Shown here: in pieces, positions 4,409-18,762 of the stretch
How the letters are laid out: every line of letters starts with the position of its first letter
How positions within the stretch are numbered: position 1 is the first letter of the stretch
Assembly: GCA_035363115.1 (NCBI GenBank)
Contig: DAOSEM010000002.1
Coordinates: 269,088-333,087, forward strand
Source: Syntrophales bacterium
Lineage (GTDB): Bacteria > Desulfobacterota > Syntrophia > Syntrophales > PHBD01
Direction: 5' to 3'
Length of the DNA: 64,000 nucleotides
Program-made: the position numbers and the translations under genes
The notes under the pieces: model-generated
Told to the model about the DNA's origin: nothing
The model's input: the letters and a program-made list of their open reading frames with translations, nothing else
Databases searched by the model: none

Positions 4409-4422
4409 CTGCTCCAGTGTGT

Positions 4423-4499
<77 letters not shown>

Positions 4500-4585: not shown

Positions 4586-4620
4586 AACAGCATCTTTCCG
4601 AGGGAAGGTGCTGTTTTTTT
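4586..4620 (+). terminator. Rho-independent terminator after tRNA-Pro
   Basis: Hairpin CAGCATCTTTCC-gag-GGAAGGTGCTG followed by T7 (4614-4620). It overlaps the track start (4608) of the next ORF, which argues for the later start at 4680. Confidence 0.7.
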
Positions 4621-4679
4621 ATGCCTTGCGGATGGCGGGGCGCCGGAATTACCATGTCCCCGGGAGGAGGCAATCCGGA

Positions 4680-6002
4680 ATGCGTGATGTGACACGAACC
4701 GAGATTCGCGAGGAGATCGGGGACCTGGTTGCGGAGCTGTACGCCGCCGGTCGCGCCGGGGAGCCTTTCGTTCCGGGAGAGACCCCCGTCCATTATGCCG
4801 GGCGCATGTTCGACGAGCGCGAGATCCAGGCAGCCGTTGCGGCATCCCTCGATTTCTGGCTCACCGAAGGCGCCCATGCACAGCGGTTTCAGCAAGACCT
4901 GGCGGAGAAGCTGGGTGTCCGGGAGACCGTTCTCGTGAATTCGGGCTCTTCGGCGAACCTCCTGGCCGTCACGGCCCTGACGTCGCCGCTCCTGAAAGAC
5001 CGCCGCCTGAAGCCGGGAGACGAGATCATTACCGCGGCCGCGGGCTTTCCCACCACCGTGAATCCGATTCTCCAGAACGGTCTCGTGCCGGTCTTCATCG
5101 ACTCTTCCACCCCGACCTACAATCCGCGGGCGGACGACATCGCCGCCGCCGTCGGCCCCCGGACGAGGGCCGTCTTCCTGGCCCATACCCTGGGAAATCC
5201 CATCGACGCCGACGCTGTCCTGGAGATCGTCCGGAGGCACGATCTGTTCCTCATCGAGGACTGCTGCGACGCCCTGGGGTCCACGTACCGGGGCCGGCAG
5301 GCCGGGACGTTCGGGATTCTCTCCACGTTCAGCTTCTACGCCGCCCACCACATCACATTGGGCGAGGGGGGAGCCGTGGCCTGCTCGGATCCGCTTCTGC
5401 TCCGGATACTCCGCTCCCTGAAGGACTGGGGCCGCGACTGCCACTGCGGTCCCGGCCAGAACAACGCCTGTGGACGGCGCTTCACCGGTCGGCACGGCGA
5501 CCTGCCGGAGGGGTACGACCACAAGTACGTCTACTCCCACCTGGGCTACAACCTGAAAGCCACGGACATCCAGGCCGCCATCGGCGTGGAGCAGCTGAAG
5601 AAGCTGGACCGGTTCTGCGCCGCCAGGCGGGAGAACTACCGATCCTGGATGGAGCGATTCCGTCCCCTGGAGGACCGTTTCCTTCTCCCCGAGGCAACCC
5701 CGGGCAGCGATCCCGCCTGGTTCGCCTTCCCCCTGACGGTTCGAGAGGGGGCGGGCTTCACCCGGCGGCAGATCACGGATTATCTGAACGAAAAACGGGT
5801 CGAGACGAGGAATCTCTTCGGGGGGAACCTGCTCCGCCAGCCGGCCTACCTGGACATCCCCCGCCGCGTCGCCGGGGAGTTGGCAGGGGCGGACCGGATC
5901 ATGAACGACGCCTTCTTCATCGGCACCTATCCTGGGATCGGGGAGGCCCAGATCGATTACACCATGGACGTCCTCCGGCGGTTCCTGGAAAGGGAGGTGT
6001 GA
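4680..6002 (+). CDS. rfbH: CDP-6-deoxy-D-xylo-4-hexulose 3-dehydrase (E1; RfbH/DdhC/AscC type), PMP- and [2Fe-2S]-dependent
   Basis: DegT/DnrJ/EryC1 aminotransferase fold. The Schiff-base Lys position is His (FSFYAAHHITLGEGG). The Cys pattern is C-X57-C-X1-C-X7-C (EDCC...DCHCGPGQNNAC), which matches my recollection of the E1 iron-sulfur motif. ATG 4680 follows GGGAGGAGG (4661-4669). Confidence 0.88.
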   Translation: MRDVTRTEIREEIGDLVAELYAAGRAGEPFVPGETPVHYAGRMFDEREIQAAVAASLDFWLTEGAHAQRFQQDLAEKLGVRETVLVNSGSSANLLAVTALTSPLLKDRRLKPGDEIITAAAGFPTTVNPILQNGLVPVFIDSSTPTYNPRADDIAAAVGPRTRAVFLAHTLGNPIDADAVLEIVRRHDLFLIEDCCDALGSTYRGRQAGTFGILSTFSFYAAHHITLGEGGAVACSDPLLLRILRSLKDWGRDCHCGPGQNNACGRRFTGRHGDLPEGYDHKYVYSHLGYNLKATDIQAAIGVEQLKKLDRFCAARRENYRSWMERFRPLEDRFLLPEATPGSDPAWFAFPLTVREGAGFTRRQITDYLNEKRVETRNLFGGNLLRQPAYLDIPRRVAGELAGADRIMNDAFFIGTYPGIGEAQIDYTMDVLRRFLEREV

Positions 6003-6008
6003 ATCGGC

Positions 6009-7091
6009 ATGAACCCGTTTGACGACTTCTATCGCGGCCGCCGGGTCCTGGTGACGGGCCATACGGGCTTCAAGGGCTCCTGGCTCGCGCTGTGGCTCCG
6101 GAAGCTCGGGGCCGAGGTCACCGGCTTCGCCCTGCCGCCGGCGACGGAGCCCTCCCACTTTGCCATCCTGGACCTGGAGAAGCGGATCCGCCACCGGGAG
6201 GGAGACATCCGCGATCTCGAAGCCGTGCGGAACGCCTTCCGGGAGGCGGAGCCGGAAGTCGTCTTCCACCTGGCGGCCCAGGCCATCGTCCGGACTTCCT
6301 ACGACCATCCCAAGGAGACCTTCGACGTCAACGTCGGGGGCACCGTCAACGTCCTGGAGGCCATAAGAAGCGCGCCCTCCGTCCGTGCCGCCGTCGTCGT
6401 GACGTCCGACAAGTGCTACGAGAACCGCGAATGGGTCTGGGGCTACCGGGAAGAGGACCCCCTGGGCGGCCATGACCCCTACAGTGCCAGCAAGGGCGCC
6501 GCGGAGATCGTCTGCGGGGCCTACGGTCGATCGTATTTCAATCCCGCCGGCCGCGGACCGCACCCGGGATTCGCCACGGCTCGGGCCGGGAATGTCATCG
6601 GGGGAGGGGACTGGGCAGCGGACCGCCTCATCCCGGACTGTGTCCGGGCCCTTGCGGCGGGAAAGGCCGTCGTCATCCGGAATCCCGGGGCCACCCGCCC
6701 CTGGCAGCACGTCCTGGAGCCGCTCTCGGGATACCTTCTGCTGGCTCGGCGCCTGGCGGAAGACTCCGTTCGCTTCTCCGGCGCCTGGAACTTCGGACCC
6801 ACCGACGGCTCGGCCATGCCGGTCCGCGAACTGGCGGCCCGCTTCGTTGCCCGTTGGCCGGAGGGCAGGCTCCGGGTGGGAAGGCAGGGAGGGAACGCGC
6901 CTCACGAGGCCCACGCGCTGGCCCTCTGCACCGACAAGGCGCGGAAGATTCTCGGCTGGTGGCCCGTCCTCTCCGCCGGGGAGGCCGTCGACTGGACGGC
7001 AGCCTGGTATCGCGCCTGGCAGGAGGGGAAGGAAAACCTCCGGACCCTCTCGCTCTGCCAGATCCGGCGATACGAAAAATCCTCGACATGA
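6009..7091 (+). CDS. rfbG: CDP-glucose 4,6-dehydratase
   Basis: 360 aa. N-terminus MNPFDDFYRGRRVLVTGHTGFKGSWLALWL is typical of RfbG/DdhB extended SDRs; YSASK catalytic motif (DPYSASKGAAE). Confidence 0.9.
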   Translation: MNPFDDFYRGRRVLVTGHTGFKGSWLALWLRKLGAEVTGFALPPATEPSHFAILDLEKRIRHREGDIRDLEAVRNAFREAEPEVVFHLAAQAIVRTSYDHPKETFDVNVGGTVNVLEAIRSAPSVRAAVVVTSDKCYENREWVWGYREEDPLGGHDPYSASKGAAEIVCGAYGRSYFNPAGRGPHPGFATARAGNVIGGGDWAADRLIPDCVRALAAGKAVVIRNPGATRPWQHVLEPLSGYLLLARRLAEDSVRFSGAWNFGPTDGSAMPVRELAARFVARWPEGRLRVGRQGGNAPHEAHALALCTDKARKILGWWPVLSAGEAVDWTAAWYRAWQEGKENLRTLSLCQIRRYEKSST

Positions 7092-7258
7092 CAGGGTTTT
7101 GATCGTCTGCGTGACGTCCGTCACATTCTTTGATCATGGAATGTGCGCATGAGACAGTCCCGGCGCACCGGATCGGGGATGGAAAGCAGGCCTGAGATCG
7201 TGTATGGTTTCGGCGGGATAAAAGATCGCACCCGGTTTCCGGATGCCGGAGGGAGAGG

Positions 7259-8056
7259 ATGCCCCGGAACATGAGAGGAAAGAAGATGCCGGCCGTCGTG
7301 ATCCTCTGCGGCGGGATGGGGACGAGGCTGGCGGAGCAGACGGAGGTTCGGCCGAAGCCGATGGTGGAGATCGGTGGACGGCCCATGCTCTGGCACATCA
7401 TGAAGCACTATGCCCGGTATGGATGCCGGGAATTCTACCTGGCCCTGGGCTACAAGGGCGAGTACATCAAGCGCTATTTCCTGGAATTCCACACCCTGAA
7501 CCGCGACTTCACGGTCAATCTAGGAGACGGACGCATCGGCGTGCTGGATTGCGCCAACGGGGAGGACTGGACGGTTCACCTCGTGGACACGGGCCTGGAG
7601 ACCATGACGGGGGGGCGCCTGAAGCGCATCGCGCCGCTCCTGCCGAGGGGACGGTTCTTCATGACCTACGGGGACGGCGTGGGCGACGTGGACCTGGATA
7701 AGCTCCTGGCCTTTCACCGTACCCGAAAGGGGCTCGTGACGCTGACCGCCGTGAGGCCGCCCGCCCGCTTCGGTGCCCTGGACTTCGACGGCGACCGCAT
7801 CGTCCGATTCAAGGAAAAATCCGTTGTCCGGGAGGGATGGATCAACGGCGGATTCTTCGTCGTCGAACCAACCGCCCTGGACTGTATCGAGCGGGACGTC
7901 ATGTGGGAGCACGACCCCATGGAGCGGCTCGCCGCGGAAGGCCGGGTGTACGCGTACCGCCATGAGGGCTTCTGGCAGTGCATGGACACGCTGCGTGAAC
8001 TCAAGTACCTGGAATCCCTCTGGGAAAGCGGAAATCCGCCCTGGAAGACATGGTGA
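7259..8056 (+). CDS. rfbF: Glucose-1-phosphate cytidylyltransferase
   Basis: The VVILCGGMGTRLAEQTEVRPKPMVEIGGRPMLWHIMKHY signature of RfbF/DdhA. The start is uncertain: 7259, 7271 and 7286 are all ATG, and both 7259 and 7286 have SD-like purine runs. Confidence 0.88.
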   Translation: MPRNMRGKKMPAVVILCGGMGTRLAEQTEVRPKPMVEIGGRPMLWHIMKHYARYGCREFYLALGYKGEYIKRYFLEFHTLNRDFTVNLGDGRIGVLDCANGEDWTVHLVDTGLETMTGGRLKRIAPLLPRGRFFMTYGDGVGDVDLDKLLAFHRTRKGLVTLTAVRPPARFGALDFDGDRIVRFKEKSVVREGWINGGFFVVEPTALDCIERDVMWEHDPMERLAAEGRVYAYRHEGFWQCMDTLRELKYLESLWESGNPPWKTW

Positions 8057-9189
8057 ACGTGCAGCAGAAGGCATCGGAACGGGTTATGCGGACGGCCGCC
8101 GTGACCGGGAATCGCAGGCGAGGCGGGATGGCCGCCGGGAACCCCCTGGCGGAGGATCTGGACCACGTCCTGGAGCGGACCCGGGACCTCTGGGAAGAAC
8201 TGCGGGGCGGCCGGATCTTCATCACCGGCGGGACGGGATTTTTCGGTTGCTGGCTCCTGGAGAGCCTTCTGTGGGCCAACCGGGAACTGGGGCTGAAGGC
8301 GAGGGCCGTGGTCCTGACCCGCGACCCGGGACGATTCGCGAAAAAGGCGCCACACCTGGCGGGAGACCCGGCGGTCCGGCTGCTCACCGGGGACATGGGA
8401 CGCTTCCGGTTCCCGCGGGGGCCTTTTACCCACCTGATTCATGCCGCCGTTTACCAGGAACCGGAAGGCGGGAAAATCCGGCCCCGGCGGATGGCGGACG
8501 AAATGATCCGGGCGACAAACCGTGTCCTCGATTTCTGCATGGAGGCGGGCGTCCGGAAAATGCTCCTCGTGAGCACCGGCGCCGTATACGGGCCGCCGCC
8601 CGCGGGAATGGACCGGGTTCCGGAGGATTTTACGGGCTCCAGGGATCCCGCCTCGGGGGAAGATGCCTATCATCATGTACGGCGGATCATGGAGACGCTG
8701 ACGGTTCTCCGGGCGGAGGAATGCGGTTTCGAGGCCAAGGTTGCCCGCTGCTTTTCCTTTATCGGGCCGTATCTCCCGCTGGACGGACGCTTTGCCGCGG
8801 GAGATTTCATCCGGGATGCCCTGGCCGGCCGCACGGTTGTCGTCAAGGGAGACGGAAAGGCCGTCCGGTCCTACCTGTACGCGGCCGATCTTGCCGTCTG
8901 GCTGTGGACGATCCTGTTCCGGGGGGTATCCGGCAGGCCGTATAATGTCGGATCCGAGAGGGCGGTCACGATTCGGCAGATTGCCCGGGCGGTCTCCCGG
9001 CAACACGCGCCTCCGCTGAAGGTGACGGTCCTGGGGAAAGAAACGCGGGGTGTCGCGCCGGGCCGGTATGTCCCGGACACATCGAAGGCGAGCTCGGAGC
9101 TTGGATTGGGGCAGGAGATCAACCTTCACAGCGCCATCGGAAAGACGATGCTGTGGAATCGAATTACAAACCAGCAAACGGAGAAATGA
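8050..9189 (+). CDS. NAD(P)-dependent epimerase/dehydratase-family protein (extended SDR), candidate sugar 4-keto or branch-chain reductase
   Basis: Rossmann motif RIFITGGTGFFGCWL. At the expected YxxxK position the sequence reads AYHHVRRIME (Arg instead of Lys), so it may be an atypical SDR. ATG 8050 overlaps the rfbF stop (ATGGTGA); alternative starts are 8086 and 8125. Confidence 0.75.
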   Translation: MVNVQQKASERVMRTAAVTGNRRRGGMAAGNPLAEDLDHVLERTRDLWEELRGGRIFITGGTGFFGCWLLESLLWANRELGLKARAVVLTRDPGRFAKKAPHLAGDPAVRLLTGDMGRFRFPRGPFTHLIHAAVYQEPEGGKIRPRRMADEMIRATNRVLDFCMEAGVRKMLLVSTGAVYGPPPAGMDRVPEDFTGSRDPASGEDAYHHVRRIMETLTVLRAEECGFEAKVARCFSFIGPYLPLDGRFAAGDFIRDALAGRTVVVKGDGKAVRSYLYAADLAVWLWTILFRGVSGRPYNVGSERAVTIRQIARAVSRQHAPPLKVTVLGKETRGVAPGRYVPDTSKASSELGLGQEINLHSAIGKTMLWNRITNQQTEK

Positions 9190-9190
9190 C

Positions 9191-10057
9191 ATGGCGGAAG
9201 TGAGAATCGGAAACGCCCTGGTCGGGGATGGCCATCCCTGCTACATCATCGCGGAGATCGGGATCAACCACAACGGGGATATCGAGATCGCGAAGAAGCT
9301 GATCGACCTGGCCGTCGTGGCGGGATGCAGCGCAGTGAAGTTCCAGAAGCGCACCGTGGACGTCGTCTATTCCGCGGAAGAACTCAATAAGCCCCGGGAA
9401 AGCCCTTTTGGTGATACCAATGGTGATCTGAAGTACGGCCTGGAGTTCGAGAAGCCCGAATACGATGTCATCGACCGGTACTGCCGGGAAAAGAAGATCC
9501 CCTGGTTTGCCTCCTGCTGGGACGAGGGGTCTGTCGATTTCATCGACCGGTACGACGTTCCCTGCTTCAAGATCGCCTCCGCCTCGCTGACGGACGACAG
9601 CCTCCTCCGGCATTACCGGAGCAAAGGGCGGCCCCTCATCATCTCCACGGGGATGAGCACCCTGGAGCAGGTCGATCACGCCGTCGAAGTCCTCGGGAAG
9701 AAGGACCTCGTCATCCTGCACTCCTGCAGCACCTACCCGGCGGATTATTCGGAGCTGAACCTGAAGGTGATTCCTTTCTTCCGCGAACGGTACACGATTC
9801 CCGTCGGCTATTCGGGCCACGAGACGGGCCTTGCCTCGTCCGTGGCGGCATTCGCCATGGGGGCCTGCGCCGTCGAGAGGCACATCACCCTGGAGCGGGC
9901 CATGTGGGGATCGGACCATGCCGCGTCTCTTGGAACCAGCGGCGTTATCCGCCTTGTCCGGGACATCCGGCTCGTGGAAATCTCCATGGGCGACGGCGTC
10001 AAGCGCATTGCCGAGCGGGAAGTCCCGATCATGAAGAAGCTGAGGCGCAAGGGCTGA
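9191..10057 (+). CDS. NeuB-family (sialic-acid-synthase-like) PEP-condensing enzyme, TIM-barrel only with no C-terminal SAF domain
   Basis: MAEVRIGNALVGDGHPCYIIAEIGINHNGDIEIAKKLID is the NeuB N-terminal signature. It is 288 aa, against about 340-350 aa as I recall for NeuB/PseI/LegI, which carry a SAF domain. ATG 9191 lies 1 nt after the upstream stop; the longer track ORF (9050) overlaps the upstream gene. Confidence 0.8.
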   Translation: MAEVRIGNALVGDGHPCYIIAEIGINHNGDIEIAKKLIDLAVVAGCSAVKFQKRTVDVVYSAEELNKPRESPFGDTNGDLKYGLEFEKPEYDVIDRYCREKKIPWFASCWDEGSVDFIDRYDVPCFKIASASLTDDSLLRHYRSKGRPLIISTGMSTLEQVDHAVEVLGKKDLVILHSCSTYPADYSELNLKVIPFFRERYTIPVGYSGHETGLASSVAAFAMGACAVERHITLERAMWGSDHAASLGTSGVIRLVRDIRLVEISMGDGVKRIAEREVPIMKKLRRKG

Positions 10058-10058
10058 C

Positions 10059-10535
10059 ATGAAGCCGAAGATCAAGGCCATTGCGCTGGACGTGGACGGG
10101 GTGCTGACGGACGGGACTTTCTGCTGGGGTCCCGACGGAGCCGAATACAAGCAGTTTTCCTTCTATGACATCATGGGCGTTTCCCTGGGAACCAGGGCCG
10201 GGCTTATGTTTGCACTGATCTCCGGCGAGAGCGGCGAGCTGATCGATCGCTTCGCATCGAAGATGGGCATCGCCGACGTCTTCAAGGGCTGCAAGGACAA
10301 GGCGGCTGCCCTGCGCTCCTTCGCGGAGAATCGGGGGCTTGATCTTTCCGAGGTCTGCTTCATGGGCGACGACGTGAACGATTTGCCGGCACTGGCCCTG
10401 GCCGGCCTGTCCGCCGCGCCCTCCAGCGCCCATAAGCGTGTCAGGGGAGTGGTGAACCTCGTTACAATCCAGCCTGGAGGCCGGGGGGCGGTCCGGGAGT
10501 TGGTCGACCACGTCCTGGCGGACAGCAGCTCATGA
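10059..10535 (+). CDS. HAD-IIIA, KdsC-family ulosonate-phosphate phosphatase (KDO-8-P / KDN-9-P phosphatase type)
   Basis: 158 aa with no cap domain. Motif I IALDVDGVLTDG and motif IV MGDDVNDLPAL, typical of KdsC and of the Bacteroides KDN-9-P phosphatase. Confidence 0.85.
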   Translation: MKPKIKAIALDVDGVLTDGTFCWGPDGAEYKQFSFYDIMGVSLGTRAGLMFALISGESGELIDRFASKMGIADVFKGCKDKAAALRSFAENRGLDLSEVCFMGDDVNDLPALALAGLSAAPSSAHKRVRGVVNLVTIQPGGRGAVRELVDHVLADSSS

Positions 10536-10566
10536 ACCCTTTTATGCTCCCGCATACGGATCCGCG

Positions 10567-12366
10567 ATGAAGCTTTCCGACTTCGTATTCGAGTTTCTTG
10601 CCGGCGCCGGTGTGCGCCATGTCTTCATGCTGCCCGGAGGCGGCGTGATGCATCTGAACGACTCCTTGGGGCGCTGCCCCGGCATCCGCTATGTGGGCTG
10701 CCTCCACGAACAGGCGTGCGCCGTCGCCGCGGAGGCGTACGCCCGGGTGGCGGACGACCTCGGGGTCGCCCTCGTCACGACCGGCCCGGGGGGGACCAAC
10801 GCGATCACGGGAGTGGCGGCAGCCTGGCAGGATTCGACGCCCTGCCTCTTCATCTCCGGGCAGGTCAAGCGGTCCGACCTGGCCGGCACCTCGGGCGTTC
10901 GGCAGATGGGGGTCCAGGAAATCGACATCGTCTCGCTCGTGAAGCCGATCACGAAATACGCCGTCACCGTCATGGACCCCGCGAAGATCCGCCATCACCT
11001 GGAGAAGGCCCTGCACCTCGCCAAAAGCGGCCGTCCGGGCCCCGTCTGGATCGACGTTCCCCTGGACGTGCAGGCCGCGGATGTGGACCCGGGCATCCTC
11101 GAAGGATTCGATCCCGGGGCGGACGCCAGACCGGAAGGGGAGGGGGAACCGGCGGAGGCAGCGGCCCGGGCCATCGACTGGTTGAACGGATCCGAGCGGC
11201 CCGTGGTCCTTGCCGGCAACGGCATCCGCGTGGCGGGGGCATGTGCCGATTTCCGCAACCTGGTCGGCCTGTTGGGAGTCCCCGTCCTGACCACCCGACT
11301 CGGAGTGGACCTGCTTCCGGCAAACCACGGCCTCTGTTTCGGCATGCCCGGGTCCATCGCGGCGCGGGGCTCCAATTTCACGCTGCAGAACGCCGACTGG
11401 CTCCTTGTCCTGGGGGCCCGCCTGGACATGGCGCTGATTGCCTACGAGCCGAAGCGCCTGGCCCGGGGGGCGCGAAAAATCATGGTCAACCTCGATCCCG
11501 CGGAGATGAGAAAGCTGGGCGGGATCCTTGATCTGGAGGTTTGCACGGATGCGGGACGGTTTATCCGGGAAATGATCCGGCAGGCCGGTTGTGTCGAGCG
11601 CCGGGACCGCTCCGCCTGGTTGGACCGCTGCCGGGATTGGCAGGCACGGTACCCCTTTGTCCAGCCGAAGCACCGGGAGAATGCGGCGGGAATCAGTGTC
11701 TATGCCTTCTCGGAGATCCTCGCGGAGGAATTGACGGGAGAGCACATCGTTCTGCCCGGGAACGCCGGGGTCGCCTGCGAGCTCTTTCTCACCGCCTTCC
11801 GGGTCAAGGAAGGGCAGCGCGTTTTTCACAACAAGGGAACCGGCGCCATGGGCTTTGGTCCCCCCGCCGCCCTCGGGGCCGCCCTAGCCAGTAGCGGGCG
11901 GCACGTCGTCTGCATCGACGGGGACGGGGGGTTCCAGATGAACGCACAGGAACTGGAGACGATCCGGCGGCTGGGCCTTCCCGTCACGTTCTTCGTCATG
12001 AACAACCAGGGATACTCCTCCATCCGGGTTTCGCAGAGCGGCTATTTCGGGCGGTTGACGGGGGCCGACGCCTCCAGCAACCTGACGCTGCCGGACCCGC
12101 TCAAGCTTGCCGGGGCTTACGGACTGAGGGCGGTCCGCATTTCGCATCCGGGGGACCTGAAGGAAAAGATCCGGGAGGTTCTCGCCCTGCCGGGGCCCGT
12201 GGTCTGCGACGTCATGCTGATCCCGGACGAGGTCCGGGAGCCGCGGGTGGCGTCGTACCAGAAACCCGACGGCTCCATGGCGTCCAAGCCGCTGGAGGAC
12301 ATGTGGCCTTTCCTCGATCGGGAGGAGTTCCGGGCCAACATGATCGTGGAGCCCGTCGAGGAGTAG
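10567..12366 (+). CDS. Thiamine-diphosphate-dependent enzyme, acetolactate-synthase large-subunit family (YerE-like candidate)
   Basis: 599 aa. N-terminal Pyr domain (VRHVFMLPGGGVMHLND...TTGPGGTNAITGVAAA) and C-terminal ThDP-binding motif GDGGFQMNAQELET...NN. No small regulatory subunit follows. Confidence 0.85.
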   Translation: MKLSDFVFEFLAGAGVRHVFMLPGGGVMHLNDSLGRCPGIRYVGCLHEQACAVAAEAYARVADDLGVALVTTGPGGTNAITGVAAAWQDSTPCLFISGQVKRSDLAGTSGVRQMGVQEIDIVSLVKPITKYAVTVMDPAKIRHHLEKALHLAKSGRPGPVWIDVPLDVQAADVDPGILEGFDPGADARPEGEGEPAEAAARAIDWLNGSERPVVLAGNGIRVAGACADFRNLVGLLGVPVLTTRLGVDLLPANHGLCFGMPGSIAARGSNFTLQNADWLLVLGARLDMALIAYEPKRLARGARKIMVNLDPAEMRKLGGILDLEVCTDAGRFIREMIRQAGCVERRDRSAWLDRCRDWQARYPFVQPKHRENAAGISVYAFSEILAEELTGEHIVLPGNAGVACELFLTAFRVKEGQRVFHNKGTGAMGFGPPAALGAALASSGRHVVCIDGDGGFQMNAQELETIRRLGLPVTFFVMNNQGYSSIRVSQSGYFGRLTGADASSNLTLPDPLKLAGAYGLRAVRISHPGDLKEKIREVLALPGPVVCDVMLIPDEVREPRVASYQKPDGSMASKPLEDMWPFLDREEFRANMIVEPVEE

Positions 12367-12376
12367 GGAACGGATC

Positions 12377-13438
12377 ATGGAAACCGCGAAGCAGAAGAAG
12401 GAGATCGAGGCCGCCCGGAGGGAGAAACTCCGGAGGGAAAAGCCTCTGGTCTATGAGAAAATCATCCGGCTCGACGAACGCTTCCAGGCTGGAATGGCAA
12501 CGCCGGTGGTGGACATCTGCTACAACCGGGCCTGCAACCTGAAGTGCCGCCATTGCTTCACTACCCGCTTCACGAAGAAGGACCGCTCCCTCTCCCCCCC
12601 GGACATGAAGCGCTTCGCCGACGAGGCCCACGAGATCGGACTGTGCCAGCTCGTCCTCTCCGGCGGAGAGCCCCTGATCCTGAAGGACCTGGAAGAAGTC
12701 ATCGCGGCGCTGCAACCAGACAAGTTCCATTTATCCATGAGCACGAACGGGTATTTCTTGACGCCGGAGATGGCAAGAAACCTCAAAACCTGGGGACTCG
12801 ACAAGGTCAAGATCAGCATCGACGACTTCGACGAACGGATGCACAACGACAATCGCCGGAACGACAACGCATACGAGAAGGCCATGGCCGCCCTGTTCAA
12901 CGCGAGAGACGCGGGTCTCAGCGTCGTCATCCAGACGTGCATCACCCATGAAAACTGCCGGACCGACCGGACCATCCAGATGGCAAAATTCGCCCAGGAG
13001 AACGGGTTTGTGGTGGACGTCATGATCGCCCACGCCGTCGGTGAATGGGAGGGCAGGCACGACATGCTGATCGACGAGGCGGACGCCGCTTACATGCGCG
13101 AGGTTCACAGGCAGTACCCGTCCCTGCACCGCGACACGTTTCCGACCTACGGCATCGACCGGGGCTGCGGGAGCGTCCAGTCCAACCTGCACCTCACCCA
13201 GTACGGCGACATCCTCCCGTGCGGCTTCATCCACATTTCCCTCGGCAGCATTTTCGAGGAGAGCCTCGCCGCCATTCTGGAGAGGGGGATGAGCATCCGG
13301 CACTTCAAAGAGTACAATCCGCTCTGCCTCTCCGGGGAGGACCGGTATTTCATCGAAAAATACATGGCGAAATTCTACGGAAAACCGCTTCCCGTCCACT
13401 GGACCGAGGTCTTCGGGGAGGAGGACTTTGTCCGATGA
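12377..13438 (+). CDS. Radical SAM protein with a C-terminal twitch/SPASM-like Cys region
   Basis: CX3CX2C at residues 53-60 (CNLKCRHC, nt 12533-12556), GGEPL motif (LSGGEPLIL), and later Cys in GCGSVQSNLHLTQYGDILPCGF. No cobalamin-binding domain is evident. Confidence 0.85.
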   Translation: METAKQKKEIEAARREKLRREKPLVYEKIIRLDERFQAGMATPVVDICYNRACNLKCRHCFTTRFTKKDRSLSPPDMKRFADEAHEIGLCQLVLSGGEPLILKDLEEVIAALQPDKFHLSMSTNGYFLTPEMARNLKTWGLDKVKISIDDFDERMHNDNRRNDNAYEKAMAALFNARDAGLSVVIQTCITHENCRTDRTIQMAKFAQENGFVVDVMIAHAVGEWEGRHDMLIDEADAAYMREVHRQYPSLHRDTFPTYGIDRGCGSVQSNLHLTQYGDILPCGFIHISLGSIFEESLAAILERGMSIRHFKEYNPLCLSGEDRYFIEKYMAKFYGKPLPVHWTEVFGEEDFVR

Positions 13439-14460
13439 GCGAGTTCACCATCATTTCCCATGACCGGCAACCGCTCCGCGACCGCCTCCCGCTCAAGAAG
13501 CCCCTCTCCCTGTTCGTCGAGCCGACGAACCTGTGCAACTTCCGCTGCACCCCCTGCGTGCACGGCAGCGAGAACACGCGCAACGACCTGAAACCGCTCC
13601 GGAACATGGAGATGGACCTGTACCGGAAGCTCATCCGCGAACTTGCGGATTGGGAAGGGCCGCCGCTGAAGTTGCTCCGGCTGGCCATGCTGGGCGAGCC
13701 TTTCGTGAATACGGAATTTTGCGAAATGGTACGCCTTGCCAGGGAGGCCCATGTCGCCGAGCGGGTGGACACGTTTTCCAACGGCTCCCTGCTGACGGAG
13801 GAGATCTCGGAGAAGCTGATCGACTGCGGGCTGGACATCATCCGCTTCTCCATTTACGCGTCGGAAAACGGGCGCCATCGGGAGGTGACCCGGTCGAATT
13901 GCACCGTGGAGACCATCCGGGATAACATCCGGCGGTTGCGGGAGCTGCGCGACGCCCGGGGAGCCCGAAAACCGTACATCTTTGTGAAAATGTTCGACAC
14001 GTACGGACCGGAGAACGACACGTTCTTCGGGATGTACCGCGACATCGCCGACGAGGTCGGGCTGGAGAAAGTCCACAACGCCACCCGGTACAGCGGGAAC
14101 GACTTGGTCAGGATGTACTACCACGACAGCGAAAAGGAGAAGCAGGCGAAGCGTGAATATGCGGAAGGGCTGAACAGGGGGCGCATCGCCTGCTCACGCC
14201 CCTTCATGGCCATGGTGATCAACAACATCGGCGACTGCCTCATGTGCACCCACGATCCCGCAAAGGGGACGAAGATCGGCAGCGCCCGCGAAAGCACCCT
14301 CCACGAGTTGTGGAACGGCGAAAACATGTTTCAGTTCCGCAAGATGCTCCTGGAGGGCCGAAAACATGAGAACCGGATCTGCGCCCGCTGCGACTGGTTC
14401 AAGCTGTTCCCGGAAGAGGACAGCGTGGACGGATTCCCCGTGGAGAGACTGCGACCGTGA
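13435..14460 (+). CDS. Radical SAM/SPASM-like protein (paralogue A)
   Basis: The start ATG overlaps the upstream stop (ATGA). CNFRCTPC at residues 34-41 (nt 13534-13557). C-terminal Cys cluster (ACSRPF...GDCLMCTHD...ICARCDW). The 471-aa track ORF is an upstream extension that overlaps the previous gene. Confidence 0.85.
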   Translation: MSEFTIISHDRQPLRDRLPLKKPLSLFVEPTNLCNFRCTPCVHGSENTRNDLKPLRNMEMDLYRKLIRELADWEGPPLKLLRLAMLGEPFVNTEFCEMVRLAREAHVAERVDTFSNGSLLTEEISEKLIDCGLDIIRFSIYASENGRHREVTRSNCTVETIRDNIRRLRELRDARGARKPYIFVKMFDTYGPENDTFFGMYRDIADEVGLEKVHNATRYSGNDLVRMYYHDSEKEKQAKREYAEGLNRGRIACSRPFMAMVINNIGDCLMCTHDPAKGTKIGSARESTLHELWNGENMFQFRKMLLEGRKHENRICARCDWFKLFPEEDSVDGFPVERLRP

Positions 14461-15509
14461 TCCGGTACACCAGCCTGAAAAACACGGACCGGCAGAACCT
14501 CAGGGAGGTCATGCCGCTGCAAAAGCCCTTCACGGTGCTCATCGAGCCGTCGAGCCTGTGCAACTTCAAGTGCATCCAGTGCTTTCAGAGCATCAAGGCG
14601 GAATCCTACTTCACCCGCACCCGGGGGAACATGCCGATGGCGCGCTTCCGGCGGGTCATGGAGCAGCTCAAGGCCTGGCCGGGGCCGAAGCTGAAGGTGC
14701 TCAAGCTGAGCCTTTACGGCGAGCCGCTCGTCAACCGGGATTTCTGCGAGATGCTGCGAATGGCCAGGGAAGCGGACGTTGCGGAGAGGATGGAGACCAC
14801 CACCAACGCCTCCCTCCTGACCCGGGAGATCGCCGAAAAATGGGTGGAGCACCAGATGGACTATGCGCGAGTGTCCATCTACGCCTCCGAGCAGGGGAGA
14901 CACAAGGCCATCACCGGTTCGAGCCTGGACATCCGCACCATCCACGAAAACCTGAGGGTTCTCCAGGAAATCAAACGGCGCGAGGGATCGGAGCGGCCCT
15001 TTGTGAGCTGCAAGATGCTGGACGCCTACGGCGACGAGAACGAACGGTTCTTCGAGATGTACCGGGACGTGGCCGACGAGGTGTACCTGGACAAGCCGCA
15101 CTGCTGGATCAAGGTGGAGGGAGCCGACTTCATCCGGGACTACTACCGCGAGGACGCACAGACCGTCCTGGTGGACCTCCGGAGGAACCGGACCCGGCGG
15201 GTCGCCTGTCCCATGGCGTTCACGACGATGGCAATCCGAAGCAACGGAGATGTCTCCCCCTGCTGCGTGGATTTCATCGGCGGCACGAACCTGGGCCGTG
15301 TGGACGACCATAGCCTGCAGGAGATCTGGCATTCCGAGCCCTGGTACGAGTTCCAGAAGATGCAGCTCATGGGCCGCAAACAGGAGAACGAATCCTGCGC
15401 CCGCTGCGATTTTTACCTCAGCGATCACTACACCCTGGACAACATCGACGGCTTCGACGTGGGAAAGCTGCTGGGGGCGGGGGAGTGCAAGACGGGAGGT
15501 GGTTCGTGA
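14457..15509 (+). CDS. Radical SAM/SPASM-like protein (paralogue B, tandem duplicate of 13435-14460)
   Basis: GTG start overlapping the upstream stop (GTGA). CNFKCIQC at residues 35-42 (nt 14559-14582). Collinear with paralogue A along its whole length at roughly 40-45 % identity by eye (shared blocks LYGEPLVNRDFCEM, RVSIYASEQGRH, FFEMYRDVADEV, CARCDF). Confidence 0.85.
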   Translation: MIRYTSLKNTDRQNLREVMPLQKPFTVLIEPSSLCNFKCIQCFQSIKAESYFTRTRGNMPMARFRRVMEQLKAWPGPKLKVLKLSLYGEPLVNRDFCEMLRMAREADVAERMETTTNASLLTREIAEKWVEHQMDYARVSIYASEQGRHKAITGSSLDIRTIHENLRVLQEIKRREGSERPFVSCKMLDAYGDENERFFEMYRDVADEVYLDKPHCWIKVEGADFIRDYYREDAQTVLVDLRRNRTRRVACPMAFTTMAIRSNGDVSPCCVDFIGGTNLGRVDDHSLQEIWHSEPWYEFQKMQLMGRKQENESCARCDFYLSDHYTLDNIDGFDVGKLLGAGECKTGGGS

Positions 15510-16618
15510 AGCTGATGGACCAGATTCGGGACGTCCGGCACGCCGAGAAGGACATCTTCGACACAATCAGGGCCTCGGGTGATCCGGTTGTGCTCTGGGG
15601 GGCCGGCGAGATCGCCTGGTGTGTCTGGACCTATCTGCGCCAGAACGGGATCGATCCGGTGTGTTTCTGTGACAATGATCCGGCCAAGCAGGGAACGAAG
15701 CATCTCGGGCTCCCCGTGTACGGTTACGACGGACTGAAGGAGCGCTTTGCACGGGAGGGTCGCCGCTACCACATTGTGGTGGCGACGGGCATTCAGTACC
15801 GGGCCCCGATCTTCGCGCAGCTGGCCGCTGCCGGGGAGAGGAACCCCATCTGGTACATCAAGGGCTTCGAGGTCTGCGGGGAAAAGATTGATTATCCTTA
15901 TGTCCGGGAGCACGCGGAGCAGTTCGAAGAGGCGTACGCATCCCTGGCGGACGACGTATCGCGGAATGTGTTCGTGCACGTCCTCATCGCCAAACTGTCC
16001 GGCGACTTCGACCTCTATCGGAGGATCATGTCCCCGTGCGAGTATTTTGACGAGGACGTGATTCGCCTGGCCGAAGACGAGGTGTACCTGGACGTCGGCG
16101 CATACCGGGGCAGGGCGATCATTGAATTCGCGAGGCGGACAAGGGGAACATACGACGGGATCATCGCGTTCGAGCCGGACAAAAGGACGCTGGACATGCT
16201 CCGGAGAACCGTCGAGGAGCACGGCATCCGGAAGGTGGAACTGCACAACAAGGGGGCCTGGGACAGGCATGCGTTCCTGAGTTTCCACGATGGGCGTGAG
16301 GGAGGATCGCGCATCCTGGAGCCTTCCGCCGTTGAAATCCCGGCAAACTCCATCGAGGTGGACGCCATCGACAACGTGCTCGACGGCCGCCGGGCGACCT
16401 ACATTTCCATGGATATCGAGGGGGCGGAGCACAACGCCATTCTGGGCGCCGAGCGGACCATCCGGACGTGGAGACCCAAAATGGCGGTTTCCGTCTATCA
16501 CAAGCGGGAGGACCTCTTCGACCTCCTGCTCCTGATCAAGTCCTTCGACCCGCAGTACCGGTTTCACATGAGGCACTACACGGAAAACCAGACCGAAACG
16601 GTGCTGTATGCGGTGTAG
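15506..16618 (+). CDS. FkbM-family SAM-dependent methyltransferase with an N-terminal Methyltransf_14-like (NDP-sugar-binding Rossmann) module
   Basis: FkbM core: VYLDVGAYRGRAIIEFA...IIAFEPDKRTLDML...SMDIEGAEHNAILGAE. N-terminal module: VVLWGAGEIAWCVWTYLRQNGIDPVCFCDNDPAKQGTKHLGLPVYGYD. GTG 15506 overlaps the upstream stop (GTGA) just after GGGAGG; an ATG at 15515 is the alternative start. Confidence 0.8.
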   Translation: MKLMDQIRDVRHAEKDIFDTIRASGDPVVLWGAGEIAWCVWTYLRQNGIDPVCFCDNDPAKQGTKHLGLPVYGYDGLKERFAREGRRYHIVVATGIQYRAPIFAQLAAAGERNPIWYIKGFEVCGEKIDYPYVREHAEQFEEAYASLADDVSRNVFVHVLIAKLSGDFDLYRRIMSPCEYFDEDVIRLAEDEVYLDVGAYRGRAIIEFARRTRGTYDGIIAFEPDKRTLDMLRRTVEEHGIRKVELHNKGAWDRHAFLSFHDGREGGSRILEPSAVEIPANSIEVDAIDNVLDGRRATYISMDIEGAEHNAILGAERTIRTWRPKMAVSVYHKREDLFDLLLLIKSFDPQYRFHMRHYTENQTETVLYAV

Positions 16619-16633
16619 GGCGGGCGGGCACGC

Positions 16634-17818
16634 ATGATCAAGAACGAGCCGATGAGGCCCTGTCCCGTATGCGGGAACGGGGTCGGCGCCGAGCGCCTCC
16701 ACACGCAGGAATTCATTCTGCCGGAGAACCACCCCCTGCCCGCGGCGTATGACGTCGTCGCCTGTGGCCGGTGCGGGTTCGTGTATGCGGACACGCCCGC
16801 CGGACAGGCTGCCTATGACCGGTACTATGCGGACATGTCGCGATACGACATGAATTATACCTGCCCCGAGAGCTCCCTCTACGCCGACCGGGCCGCGTGG
16901 ATCGATTCGTTCATCGGCAACCGGGCGGACAGCGTCATCGACATCGGCTGCGGAAATGGCCTGCTGCTTCTGGAACTGCGGAAACGCGGGCTGTCGGATC
17001 TGACGGGCCTGGATCCGTCCGAGGCATGCATCTCGGCGCTCCGGGAAAAGGGCATCCCGGGGATCGCCGGCAGCATCTTCTCCGTTTCCACGGACAGGAC
17101 GTTCGACTGCGCCGTGCTTTCCGGGGTGCTGGAGCACATCTGCGACGTCGGCGGCGTCATGGAGACGGCCAAGAGGCTTCTGAAGCACGGCGGCCGGCTG
17201 TTTGTCTGCGTTCCCGACGCCTCGCGGTACCGGTTTTTCGATGCTGTTCCCTTCGATTACTTCAACATAGAGCACATCAATCACTTCGAGGAGACGTCGC
17301 TGTTCAACCTCGGACTTCAGCACGGCTTTCATGTGAACGCATTTCTCAAGACGACCATCACGCTGGCCCGGACGACGCAGCCGATGATCTTCTGCGCATA
17401 TGAGAACACGGGGCAACCCGCCGGTGATATGCTTGCATATGCGCGAAATGCCGTCGTTCAGTATATCGTGCAGACGAAGAAAATGGCGGGTGTCAATCGG
17501 GTTCTTGACGAACTGGAGGAAACGGGAGAAGAAGTGATCGTCTGGGGGGCGGGGAATTACACGAGCCGTCTCCTGGCCGGATCGAGTCTGGGCCGATGCA
17601 ACATCGTCCTGATCGTGGACAACGATCCGCACAAGCAGGGCACACGGATTGGAGGAAGAACGGTCCATTCCCCCCGGGCAATCCGCGACGAGGGGAAGGA
17701 CTGTACCATTCTGATCGCTGCGGCGGTTTTCGGCGACGAGATCGCGGCGGAGATCCGGAATATGGGATTGCAGAACAAAATCATATTCTTGGGCAATTCA
17801 GGAGAACGTTCCGCATGA
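16634..17818 (+). CDS. NDP-hexose C-methyltransferase-like protein (TcaB9/TylC3 architecture: Zn-ribbon + class I SAM MTase + Methyltransf_14 C-terminal domain)
   Basis: Four-Cys ribbon CPVCGNG...(x31)...CGRCGF; SAM motif VIDIGCGNGLLLLEL; C-terminal VIVWGAGNYTSRLLAGSSLGRCNIVLIVDNDPHKQGTRIGGRTVHSP. This matches my recollection of the Pfam Methyltransf_13/_14 arrangement. Confidence 0.75.
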   Translation: MIKNEPMRPCPVCGNGVGAERLHTQEFILPENHPLPAAYDVVACGRCGFVYADTPAGQAAYDRYYADMSRYDMNYTCPESSLYADRAAWIDSFIGNRADSVIDIGCGNGLLLLELRKRGLSDLTGLDPSEACISALREKGIPGIAGSIFSVSTDRTFDCAVLSGVLEHICDVGGVMETAKRLLKHGGRLFVCVPDASRYRFFDAVPFDYFNIEHINHFEETSLFNLGLQHGFHVNAFLKTTITLARTTQPMIFCAYENTGQPAGDMLAYARNAVVQYIVQTKKMAGVNRVLDELEETGEEVIVWGAGNYTSRLLAGSSLGRCNIVLIVDNDPHKQGTRIGGRTVHSPRAIRDEGKDCTILIAAAVFGDEIAAEIRNMGLQNKIIFLGNSGERSA

Positions 17819-18762
17819 GCCTGGGCCGGAAGACCATCAGCGTTGTTGCGGGCTGTTTCAACGAGGAGGGAAACCTGCAGCCGTTTTATGACCGGCTGAT
17901 GAAGGTTTTCGAACAGCTGCCCGGGTATGATTACGAGATCATCGTGGCGGACAACTGCTCGACCGACGGCAGCCAGGAGATCCTGCGCCGCCTGGCCTCC
18001 ACCGACAGGAAGTTCAAGGTGATTCTGAACGCGAACAACTTCGGGCAGATCCGTTCCCCGTTCCACGCCCTTCTCCAGGCGAAGGGAGATGCCGTCGTCG
18101 CCATCACCTCGGACCTGCAGAATCCTCCGGAGCTGATTCCGGAATTCGTGAAGAAGTGGGAGGAGGGGCATGAAGTCGTCATCGCGGTGAAGCGGAAAAC
18201 GGCCGAGAACGCCGTCGTCTCGGTGGTCCGGAATTTCTATTATTACCTCCTGTCCCGCTTTTCCGAATCCGACCACATCATCCGCGGCTTCACGGGCTTC
18301 GGCCTCTACGACCGCAAGTTCATGGACGCCCTCGCGCTGTACAAGAATTCATATCCCTATTTTCGCGGACTGGTCGGGGAGATCGGTTTCCGCCGTGCCA
18401 CGGTGCCGTTTGACCAACCGCCGCGCCGGCATGGGCGGTCCAAGAATAATTTCTTCACCCTCTACGATGTTGCAATGACCGGCTTCGTCAACCATTCCCG
18501 GCTTCCCCTGCGCCTCGCAGCCATGACCGGGTTTGGCGTGGCCATCCTGAGCCTCCTGGTCGCCTTCGGCTATTTCGTCTACAAACTCGTTTTCTGGGAC
18601 AGCTTTTCCGTCGGGATCGCGCCCCTGGTCATCGGCCTGTTCTTCTTCGCCTCCGTCCAGCTCTTCTTCATCGGCATCGTGGGCGAGTACATCGGCGCCA
18701 TCCACACCCAGGTGCTTAAGCGCCCGCTGGTCATCGAGAAGGAGCGCATCAACTTTGACTGA
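17815..18762 (+). CDS. GT2 polyprenyl-phosphate glycosyltransferase (GtrB/ArnC/DPM1-like)
   Basis: The start ATG overlaps the upstream stop (ATGA). ISVVAGCFNEEGNL...IIVADNCSTDGS...VVAITSDLQNPPE (DxD-type), followed by two C-terminal TM helices (AAMTGFGVAILSLLVAFGYFVY, LVIGLFFFASVQLFFIGIVGEY). Confidence 0.85.
   Translation: MSLGRKTISVVAGCFNEEGNLQPFYDRLMKVFEQLPGYDYEIIVADNCSTDGSQEILRRLASTDRKFKVILNANNFGQIRSPFHALLQAKGDAVVAITSDLQNPPELIPEFVKKWEEGHEVVIAVKRKTAENAVVSVVRNFYYYLLSRFSESDHIIRGFTGFGLYDRKFMDALALYKNSYPYFRGLVGEIGFRRATVPFDQPPRRHGRSKNNFFTLYDVAMTGFVNHSRLPLRLAAMTGFGVAILSLLVAFGYFVYKLVFWDSFSVGIAPLVIGLFFFASVQLFFIGIVGEYIGAIHTQVLKRPLVIEKERINFD

Follow-up and report, generated by a model that had tools for sequence, protein, structure and literature searches.

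The 64,000-nucleotide (64-kb) stretch of DNA analysed here, called the window throughout, comes from contig DAOSEM010000002.1 of a Syntrophales metagenome-assembled genome (MAG) and carries an operon predicted to make a branched deoxysugar linked to cytidine diphosphate (CDP). Twelve open reading frames (ORFs), all on the forward strand, fill positions 4680 to 17818 and encode, in order, RfbH/E1, RfbG, RfbF, an extended short-chain dehydrogenase/reductase (SDR), a short NeuB-like synthase, a KdsC-like phosphatase, a YerE-like thiamine diphosphate (ThDP)-dependent carboligase, three radical S-adenosylmethionine (SAM) enzymes designated rSAM1 to rSAM3, an FkbM-family methyltransferase and a zinc-ribbon C-methyltransferase. 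This arrangement was obtained from an ORF map together with a gene pick based on G+C content at third codon positions (GC3), and metagenome gene calls made independently on identical contigs agree with it.

The genes are tightly packed, with intergenic gaps of 1-31 nt or overlaps of 4-7 nt, the sole larger gap being the 167 nt between RfbG and RfbF, 5' of rfbF. The remaining spacers are 6 nt (RfbH to RfbG), 1 nt on either side of the NeuB-like gene, 31 nt (KdsC-like to ThDP), 10 nt (ThDP to rSAM1) and 15 nt (FkbM to C-methyltransferase), with a 7-nt overlap of RfbF and the SDR and 4-nt overlaps at both rSAM1/rSAM2 and rSAM2/rSAM3; three candidate starts are present for the FkbM gene, at 15485, 15506 and 15515. 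An earlier interpretation made from the DNA letters (the sequence-only reading) had described these twelve one-strand genes with this spacing, which the ORF map, the gene pick and the metagenome calls all confirm, and each of its twelve family assignments holds in profile searches against Pfam and NCBIfam. Its placement of the operon's end at 17818 needs revision. A gene for a family 2 glycosyltransferase (GT2; 17815-18762) overlaps the C-methyltransferase stop codon by 4 nt and therefore belongs to the same operon, which continues through a GtrA gene to at least 19287; a gene for a 323-aa protein (19325-20296), followed by a 524-nt gap, is probably the last of the transcription unit.

The CDP-sugar genes and the YerE-like carboligase

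The operon opens with the genes for CDP-4-keto-3,6-dideoxyglucose. RfbH/E1 (4680-6002), a CDP-4-keto-6-deoxyglucose 3-dehydrase dependent on pyridoxamine 5'-phosphate and a [2Fe-2S] cluster, scores 642.7 bits against the NCBIfam equivalog NF011936 (cutoff 423) and contains the exact E1 motif C196-X57-C254-X1-C256-X7-C264, with HH223-224 replacing the lysine that binds pyridoxal 5'-phosphate. RfbG (6009-7091), a CDP-glucose 4,6-dehydratase, scores 485 bits on the TIGR02622 equivalog (cutoff 278), and RfbF (7259-8056), a glucose-1-phosphate cytidylyltransferase and the only nucleotidyltransferase of the cluster, scores 327.6 bits on TIGR02623 (cutoff 300.25). With all three above their equivalog cutoffs and the E1 motif in place, the proposal in the sequence-only reading of a CDP-deoxysugar operon built on RfbF/G/H is well founded. 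The extended SDR that follows (8050-9189; Pfam Epimerase, 97.8 bits) is presumed to be a YerF-like reductase of a ketone at C1' of the branch, and its orthologues, at 40-56% identity, are found in most related clusters.

The candidate C4-branching enzyme is the product of the seventh gene (10567-12366), which has three ThDP domains by Pfam and a canonical GDG-N27-NN motif at residue 452. Its matches in the PDB are led by JanthE (8rph; E-value 1e-110), followed by 5ahk, which we take to be PpYerE (1e-80), and by acetohydroxyacid synthases (AHAS; 1e-70 and weaker). The corresponding bit scores of 374 for JanthE, 271 for PpYerE and at most 242 for AHAS place it as YerE-like and not as a true acetolactate synthase, in keeping with the sequence-only reading, and its alignment with JanthE runs end to end, C-terminal tail included. 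JanthE is a YerE-like enzyme of Janthinobacterium sp. HH01 (PMC12188165), and solved structures exist for both PpYerE and JanthE (PMC12247030). The ThDP-binding motif differs between the two proteins, being CDG in JanthE and GDG in the enzyme of the window.

Proposed donor supply and conservation of the cluster

The two genes directly 5' of the carboligase would make a donor for it. The first (9191-10057) encodes a short, 288-aa NeuB-family synthase dependent on phosphoenolpyruvate (PEP) that matches the Pfam NeuB domain over its full length (239 bits); no C-terminal SAF/AFP-like domain was found in the protein. It keeps the catalytic Glu, Lys, His and Asp of Neisseria meningitidis NeuB, its best PDB match is 6ncs (290 aa), and we propose that it makes a 3-deoxy-2-ulosonate omega-phosphate. 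The second (10059-10535) encodes a KdsC/YrbI-family phosphatase of the haloacid dehalogenase (HAD) superfamily, of the type that acts on the 8-phosphate of 3-deoxy-D-manno-octulosonic acid (Kdo) or the 9-phosphate of 2-keto-3-deoxynononic acid (KDN); it scores 109.5 bits on TIGR01670 (cutoff 106.95), and its best match is KDN-9-P phosphatase at 119.6 bits, under that model's cutoff of 180.

A function for such a pair is suggested by the scheme of Steitz et al. (2022), proposed and in part demonstrated, in which a functionalised alpha-keto acid made by an aldolase is added by a YerE-like enzyme to C4 of CDP-4-keto-3,6-dideoxy-D-glucose, after which a YerF-like reductase acts on the branch (PMC9306805). 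The scheme spans erwiniose (ErwE/F/I/J of Pectobacterium atrosepticum), caryophyllose (MMAR_2331/2332 of Mycobacterium marinum), gastriose (MygE/F/I of M. gastri) and a methylated sugar of R. palustris, and in vitro donor preferences are given for ErwE and MyGE, the former rejecting pyruvate and accepting the aldolase product (PMC9306805). The cluster in the window contains no gene of a pyruvate aldolase family, and the NeuB-family synthase and KdsC-type phosphatase occupy the equivalent position.

How widely this arrangement is conserved was determined by a search with the ThDP protein in which each species was represented by a single genome. It yielded 80 loci with matches of 32-91% identity, spread over more than ten phyla and a few archaea; the cluster proteins were compared with these loci by tblastn, and the counts given here refer to the 62 loci that reach 14 kb or more. 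Of these, 52 have a NeuB-family gene close to the ThDP gene, 45 have RfbH and 38 have the complete RfbF/G/H set, and an FkbM or C-methyltransferase homologue is found in 38. The short NeuB-like/KdsC-like pair adjoins the ThDP gene in 15/62 loci, and a KdsC-like gene accompanies the short NeuB in 15 of 21. When loci were instead sampled with the short NeuB as anchor, all four lay in RfbF/G/H-SDR-NeuB clusters, with HAD, ThDP and methyltransferase genes directly next in three of them (L090, L091 and L093, the last closing with GT2-GtrA); the fourth contig stops one unlabelled gene past NeuB.

Two types of cluster can be recognised. Group 1, to which the window belongs, has a short NeuB (67-75% identical) and a KdsC-like protein (54-69%) directly 5' of a ThDP enzyme that is 54-68% identical, and its hosts include Nitrospirota, Hydrogenedentota, Armatimonadota, Planctomycetota, Acidobacteriota, Riflebacteria and others. 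Locus L086 has nearly the window's own order (RfbG-RfbH-RfbF-SDR-NeuB-HAD-ThDP-rSAM1-rSAM2-rSAM3-FkbM, a vitamin B12-type radical SAM gene, C-methyltransferase and GT2), and L088 contains the same genes in another order. The clusters of group 2 have a NeuB-cupin fusion of about 520 aa, a conserved 206-aa protein belonging to no family and a ThDP enzyme about 50-56% identical, often with a NUDIX hydrolase, an rSAM1-like gene and one or two rSAM2/3-like genes, and with a B12-type radical SAM gene and WcbI in some. It is the commoner type, seen in L015, L017 (6773-17266), L020, L023, L026, L028, L031, L035, L047, L074, L080 and others. The recurrence of the same gene set in many phyla means that the co-location is not due to chance; chance co-occurrence, which the sequence-only reading had allowed for, is refuted by the synteny around the ThDP, rSAM1 and NeuB anchors alike. 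The NeuB subtype, whether short with KdsC or fused to cupin, tracks the identity and clade of the ThDP enzyme, as expected of a pair in which one member supplies a donor and the other uses it.

We note that one of the loci, L087, belongs to a cultured purple sulfur bacterium, Thiorhodococcus mannitoliphagus (GCA_010915725.1, JAAIJR010000065.1). It has ThDP, rSAM1, B12-type radical SAM, rSAM2, rSAM3, FkbM and C-methyltransferase genes, together with HddA-like and HddC-like genes of a heptose pathway and a NeuB-SAF-AP_endonuc_2 fusion; RfbG was not seen within 21 kb. The acceptor at this locus may be a different, heptose-type nucleotide sugar.

Other uses of the NeuB-like/KdsC-like pair have to be weighed. 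The sequence-only reading had the carboligase add the two-carbon unit of pyruvate, giving a yersiniose core, and a separate PEP-dependent extension of the skeleton by the NeuB-like enzyme, with the methyltransferases adding further branches to give a multiply C-branched higher-carbon sugar. The YerE-like nature of the carboligase, the use of pyruvate by JanthE in vitro and the TcaB9-type architecture of the C-methyltransferase all agree with this. NeuB-family enzymes need a free aldehyde, however, which a CDP-linked pyranose lacks, a KdsC-type phosphatase implies a phosphorylated ulosonate and not a nucleotide sugar as the product, the NeuB subtype co-varies with the ThDP clade, and ErwE of the analogous cluster refuses pyruvate and takes the aldolase product (PMC9306805). 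We thus regard a two-carbon branch with separate chain extension as unlikely and probably wrong, the pair fitting as the donor module of the Steitz scheme.

Still less likely, in our estimation, is a mixture of two independent pathways in one operon, the first leading to a yersiniose-like CDP-sugar and the second to a free Kdo/KDN-type ulosonic acid used as a separate glycan residue. NeuB with a KdsC-type phosphatase is indeed the classic route by way of KDN-9-P or N-acetylneuraminic acid (Neu5Ac)-9-P, and an exopolysaccharide (EPS) export cluster lies just downstream. Such a residue would call for activation by a cytidine monophosphate (CMP)-ulosonate synthetase, and searches of the window and of 83 loci turned up no cytidylyltransferase of this kind (NeuA/KdsB type): tblastn with Escherichia coli KdsB gave only P-loop-level matches to RfbF, and CTP_transf_3 is absent from the Pfam-labelled neighbourhoods of L001-L005 and L086-L088, a 38-aa CTP_transf_3 fragment in L093 being the sole trace. 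It follows that the ulosonic acid is not itself turned into an activated sugar. The NeuB, KdsC and ThDP genes are, moreover, contiguous across phyla, and the minimal clusters L010 and L012, which consist only of RfbF/G/H, SDR, NeuB, KdsC, ThDP, two FkbM, GT2 and GtrA, contain no other gene able to use an ulosonic acid. Given the position of the pair beside the ThDP gene across phyla and the missing CMP-ulosonate synthetase, the NeuB-like and KdsC-like enzymes most likely supply a 3-deoxy-2-ulosonic acid donor, and the branch would be a long polyhydroxyalkyl chain and not a two-carbon unit.

Some relatives hint at the aldose on which the NeuB-like enzyme acts. Paralogues of the GmhA phosphoheptose isomerase (SIS family), scoring just under the equivalog cutoffs, lie in or beside group 1 clusters at L008 (6372-7016) and L041 (18790-19335), and the substrate may thus be an aldose of the heptose-7-phosphate type. 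Partners of isomerase type recur at the NeuB gene, as the GmhA-like SIS proteins of L008 and L041, the cupin fusion of group 2 and the AP_endonuc_2 fusion of L087, and a sugar isomerase beside NeuB would parallel the logic of KdsD-KdsA-KdsC.

Candidate tailoring enzymes, transfer genes and surroundings

Three radical SAM genes follow the carboligase. rSAM1 (12377-13438; Pfam Radical_SAM with a weak SPASM match) has its CX3CX2C motif at residues 53-60 and one C-terminal auxiliary-cluster, twitch-like region; its AlphaFold 2 (AF2) model, with a predicted local distance difference test (pLDDT) of 91, has generic fold neighbours (SkfB, SuiB, MoaA, BlsE and viperin) at template modelling scores (TM) of at most 0.6. 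rSAM2 (13435-14460; Pfam Radical_SAM and SPASM) is a twitch/SPASM enzyme and a paralogue of rSAM3 at 43% identity, and it is present as the third radical SAM gene in L006, L007, L086 and L087. rSAM3 (14457-15509) is a BtrN-like twitch enzyme and a candidate radical alcohol dehydrogenase: its sequence matches in the PDB are to the twitch domain of BtrN (1.8e-10) and to the core of DesII, and its AlphaFold model (pLDDT 82) has BtrN as top fold match (TM 0.75 normalised to BtrN), followed by anSME, SuiB and DesII. Its orthologues in L008 and L034 are 67-71% identical and in both cases adjoin rSAM1. The radical SAM enzymes BtrN, anSME and DesII catalyse oxidations or eliminations at carbons that bear a heteroatom, and related aminoglycoside pathways have a dehydrogenase dependent on nicotinamide adenine dinucleotide (NAD) in place of BtrN. 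No B12 domain was found in rSAM1-3 by Pfam and NCBIfam profile searches.

At least one radical SAM gene is present in 23/62 ThDP-anchored loci. An rSAM1-like gene is found in 17, with an rSAM2/3-like partner in 16 of the 17 and nearly always adjacent, and all three loci sampled with rSAM1 as anchor, L086, L087 and L088, have the same CDP-sugar/ThDP cluster type. The rSAM1 family is 63-96% identical across phyla, and the rSAM1 and rSAM3 families together 63-80%. This conservation shows that the genes are not present by chance and already largely refutes the notion that they encode SPASM-type peptide or cofactor maturases with no role in sugar synthesis. The top NCBIfam matches, all far under cutoff, are to maturase-type families (tungsten cofactor maturase, AhbD/NirJ and PqqE), and SkfB and SuiB are among the fold matches; against these stand the 4-nt start/stop overlaps inside the operon, the 17 loci with rSAM1-like genes (16 with partners), the three of three rSAM1-anchored loci, and the lack of a precursor peptide gene or a cofactor-dependent enzyme nearby. 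We therefore consider a maturase function exceedingly improbable.

In two relatives the slot between ThDP and FkbM is filled by other genes instead of radical SAM genes. In L090 (12201-15460) it holds an AP_endonuc_2 (xylose-isomerase-like) TIM barrel and three short-chain dehydrogenases, and in L091 (12169-14902) an AP_endonuc_2 TIM barrel, a Gfo/Idh/MocA oxidoreductase and one short-chain dehydrogenase. These look like NAD-dependent counterparts of an oxygen-independent radical SAM set, and the presence of NAD-dependent oxidoreductases in this slot fits a redox or epimerisation role for the latter. By analogy, we propose that the radical SAM enzymes may tailor the polyol branch or the ring by redox reactions, epimerisation or deoxygenation.

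Two methyltransferases complete the set described by the sequence-only reading. The FkbM-family protein (15515-16618), with an N-terminal NeuD/PglB-like domain, matches Pfam Methyltransf_21 and scores 72.9 bits on TIGR01444 (cutoff 37.7); one or two FkbM copies lie 3' of the ThDP gene in nearly all group 1 clusters. FkbM enzymes are typically O-methyltransferases, and this one is probably no exception. The last of the twelve genes (16634-17818) encodes a predicted class I SAM C-methyltransferase that matches Methyltransf_23 (78 bits), has a C-terminal Methyltransf_14 domain (30.6 bits against a cutoff of 23.5) and carries a Cys4 ribbon of the form CxxC...CxxC at residues 10, 13, 44 and 47. The zinc ribbon, class I SAM domain and Methyltransf_14 domain together make up the architecture of TcaB9 and TylC3, in support of the sequence-only reading. 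Its target would lie alpha to a keto group, either at ring C3 or C5 before branching or at C2' of the 1'-oxo branch, and through it a multiply C-branched product is possible. We also considered whether this enzyme is functionally tied to the rSAM2/3-like genes, which was rejected as a rule; the methyltransferase is common in clusters free of radical SAM genes and is thus not obligatorily coupled to them.

The GT2 (Pfam Glycos_transf_2, 89 bits) has its best NCBIfam matches in PgfS (170 bits) and ArnC (114 bits), both under cutoff, and is therefore assigned as a polyprenyl-phosphate glycosyltransferase of the GtrB/ArnC/PgfS type; orthologues of 50-63% identity are found in 29/62 loci. The next gene encodes a small GtrA-family membrane protein (18811-19287; Pfam GtrA_DPMS_TM, 69 bits), presumably its flippase partner, and GtrA accompanies the GT2 in related loci. 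The conserved pair suggests transfer of the sugar to undecaprenyl phosphate and flipping of the product, as in the Gtr, Arn and Pgf systems. The 323-aa protein encoded next, also on the forward strand, has an N-terminal signal or transmembrane segment, a C-terminal transmembrane segment and only a sub-threshold match to Wzt_C, and is kept only in the closest relative, L007.

Directly 3' of the operon lies a block for EPS priming and export (20820-29523), encoding a polyprenyl glycosylphosphotransferase (20820-22145), YjbH (22306-24411), a Wzz/GNVR protein (24421-25479), an unusually large Wza-like protein of 1075 aa with six SLBB repeats (25460-28687) and a FecR-domain protein (28684-29523). 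The glycan of this block may be the target that the branched sugar decorates. A diffusible specialised metabolite, such as a nucleoside- or aminoglycoside-like compound with a high-carbon sugar, is a very improbable product. Radical SAM, ThDP and C-methyltransferase genes together are typical of antibiotic sugar pathways, and BtrN and DesII are themselves antibiotic-pathway enzymes; but no aglycone, nonribosomal peptide or polyketide synthetase, resistance or export genes for such a compound are present, the operon closes with a polyprenyl-phosphate GT2 and GtrA and abuts the EPS cluster, and the characterised YerE-like pathways feed lipopolysaccharide (LPS) or lipooligosaccharide (LOS) (PMC9306805; PMC12247030).

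On its other side the sugar operon begins 180 nt past a gene for tRNA-Pro(GGG) (4423-4499, forward strand; identified by ARAGORN, Rfam tRNA 57.7 bits), which marks the left boundary of the cluster and may be an island insertion site. The G+C content of the first half of the operon (4001-12000) is 0.65-0.66, against 0.56-0.63 in most of the window, and this shift and the position of the tRNA gene are compatible with island-like acquisition. An Rfam scan of the whole window detected only two tRNAs and no match in the 167-nt gap 5' of rfbF. A scan for promoters and terminators from 4200 to 22400 gave counts equal to those of shuffled sequence, so no boundary was obtained from it.

Elsewhere in the window, an in-frame TGA at 2633-2635 (motif HCARL*HS) splits the alpha subunit of a formate dehydrogenase into two ORFs (1481-4267); this TGA is a selenocysteine codon, and metagenome gene callers divide the gene in two. 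Three paralogues of acetyl-CoA hydrolase/transferase lie within 14 kb (35052-36566, 43531-44886 and 47160-49049), the third with a C-terminal fusion to a GNAT acetyltransferase domain. Subunits I and II of a cytochrome bd oxidase are encoded at 61391-63764 in what is apparently a syntrophic anaerobe.

The proposed pathway and its known relatives

Taken together, these observations make it fairly probable that the operon, from 4680 to about 20296, directs the synthesis of a CDP-activated 3,6-dideoxyhexose with a long, acyl-derived branch at C4, which is passed to a lipid carrier for the decoration of a glycan. From family membership, RfbF, RfbG and RfbH/E1 would convert glucose 1-phosphate into CDP-4-keto-3,6-dideoxy-D-glucose, with the E3 reductase coming from elsewhere. 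The short NeuB-like enzyme would join PEP to a phosphorylated aldose, and removal of the terminal phosphate by the KdsC-type phosphatase would give a free 3-deoxy-2-ulosonic acid. The YerE-like enzyme would decarboxylate this alpha-keto acid and add the acyl anion to the C4 ketone, yielding, by analogy with ErwE, MMAR_2332 and MyGE, a tertiary alcohol with a 1'-oxo-2'-deoxy-polyhydroxyalkyl branch, whose 1'-ketone the SDR would reduce in the manner of YerF. More speculatively, rSAM1-3 may remodel hydroxyl-bearing carbons by hydrogen-atom abstraction, our best guess being an oxidation of the BtrN type followed by epimerisation, deoxygenation or C-methylation beside the new ketone; the FkbM enzyme may O-methylate the product, and the TcaB9-like enzyme may C-methylate it alpha to a keto group. 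The GtrB/ArnC-like GT2 would then move the sugar to undecaprenyl phosphate, GtrA would aid flipping, and an unlinked glycosyltransferase of the GT-C type would attach the sugar to LPS, EPS or another surface glycan.

A bolder version of this scheme, which we hold only tentatively and think somewhat doubtful, has a Kdo- or KDN-like ulosonic acid grafted by decarboxylation onto the CDP-dideoxyhexose to give a monosaccharide of 12-15 carbons, which rSAM1/rSAM3 together with rSAM2 would then subject to novel nucleotide-sugar chemistry, the whole making up an uncharacterised class that spans phyla. Candidate chemistries in that case are radical deoxygenation, epimerisation and C-C cyclisation of the branch onto the ring, the last of which would possibly give a caryose-like carbocyclic sugar; how caryose itself is made is not known (PMC9092360).

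Several points count against the pathway that we favour. It is a pathway predicted from the genes of a Syntrophales MAG, and the order of its steps could differ, with the phosphatase acting before or after coupling and the radical SAM enzymes acting either on the donor or, later, on the CDP-sugar. For JanthE, the solved enzyme nearest to the carboligase, the physiological substrate is not known (PMC12188165). The NeuB-like enzyme reaches none of the NCBIfam equivalog cutoffs, with 240.6 bits against 399.65 for TIGR03569 and 187 bits against 340 for TIGR03586, so that its substrate cannot be read from its sequence, and the generic fold matches of rSAM1 permit no assignment of function. The C-methyltransferase matches TcaB9 with an E-value of only 1e-4, over residues 42-360. 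The catalytic motif of the SDR reads Y207-x3-R211 (YHHVRR, residues 207-212) instead of YxxxK; the Lys-to-Arg change is common to the two closest full-set clusters, L006 and L086 (YHQVRR in L086), and other orthologues retain YGEGK. No E3/AscD reductase for RfbH (Fer2/FAD/NAD_binding_1) is encoded in the 64-kb window; an E3-like NAD_binding_1 gene lies directly 3' of RfbH in L090 and L091, and the role of E3 is presumably filled by a gene located elsewhere or by a general reductase. Nor is there a GT-C-type transferase (GtrC/ArnT-like) among the ORFs of the window, where the 323-aa neighbour has only two transmembrane segments and the genes outside the cluster, searched for both E3/AscD and GT-C, are housekeeping genes. 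Finally, a literature search that did not reach a survey of more than 200 YerE-like clusters found no report linking this gene set to a solved sugar structure, a link that would have refuted the sequence-only reading, and, beyond the papers of Steitz et al. (2022) and of Bjarnesen (2025), no description of the gene set; that survey, reportedly an in-silico study by Krug and colleagues in 2024, may already cover this class.

The surface antigens of pathogens and of environmental bacteria are shaped by branched high-carbon sugars, caryophyllose and gastriose among them, and to our knowledge few of the pathways to these sugars are understood. The cluster points to a second general route of branch supply, by PEP-dependent synthesis of the NeuB type as opposed to a pyruvate aldolase, and the 52 of 62 loci, in more than ten phyla, with a NeuB-family gene near the ThDP gene indicate the breadth of this putative route. 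It also places three radical SAM families, at 63-80% identity across phyla, firmly within nucleotide-sugar biosynthesis. If our interpretation is correct, the "unifying scheme" for acyl-branched sugars would be extended, YerE-like carboligases with polyhydroxylated donors would become available to biocatalysis, and radical SAM chemistry new for carbohydrates would probably come to light, questions that the cultured carrier T. mannitoliphagus opens to experiment.

Comparison with characterised systems shows which parts have precedents. Like BtrN, DesII and anSME, rSAM2 and rSAM3 combine a CX3CX2C core with a C-terminal domain of twitch type that is rich in Cys, but the identity is only about 15-18% and the dehydrogenase role is a prediction; rSAM1 has no close functional relative. 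The donor module resembles the KdsD-KdsA-KdsC route and the KDN-9-P synthase and phosphatase of Bacteroides, in which PEP and an aldose phosphate give an ulosonate phosphate and then the free ulosonate; the phosphatases are of the same HAD C0 (YrbI) family, and some relatives of the window add a SIS isomerase. It differs from these routes in having no KdsB/NeuA homologue and a truncated NeuB without SAF, and its product is proposed to serve in decarboxylative transfer by the ThDP enzyme. The pathway for yersiniose A (YerE/YerF in Yersinia pseudotuberculosis O:VI) would share the acceptor, the ThDP-dependent branching at C4 and the reduction of the branch ketone, but YerE uses pyruvate to make a two-carbon branch, and genes for NeuB, a phosphatase, radical SAM enzymes or methyltransferases are not part of that pathway.

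The closest likeness is to the pathways of the Steitz scheme, which also cluster CDP-4-keto-3,6-dideoxyglucose genes with a YerE-like carboligase, an adjacent reductase (in the window presumed to be the SDR) and a donor-building enzyme (in the window only proposed) and serve a surface glycan, the R. palustris example having a SAM methyltransferase as well. The sequence-only reading held that no known pathway logic combines such parts, which is out of date for the core, as this is covered by the scheme of 2022 (PMC9306805). Of its proposals, the CDP-sugar, the YerE-like branching, the novelty of the product and the genuine synteny stand, the two-carbon branch is probably wrong and the claim to lack all precedent does not hold. 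In the window, a PEP-dependent NeuB-family synthase and a KdsC-type phosphatase take the place of the class II pyruvate aldolase, which predicts a terminally hydroxylated branch derived from an ulosonic acid, and three radical SAM enzymes, an FkbM and a TcaB9-like methyltransferase and a GtrB/GtrA pair are found in addition. It is the proposed donor supply by NeuB and KdsC, the three radical SAM enzymes and the predicted hand-off to GtrB and GtrA that are new with respect to the YerE-type pathways described so far.

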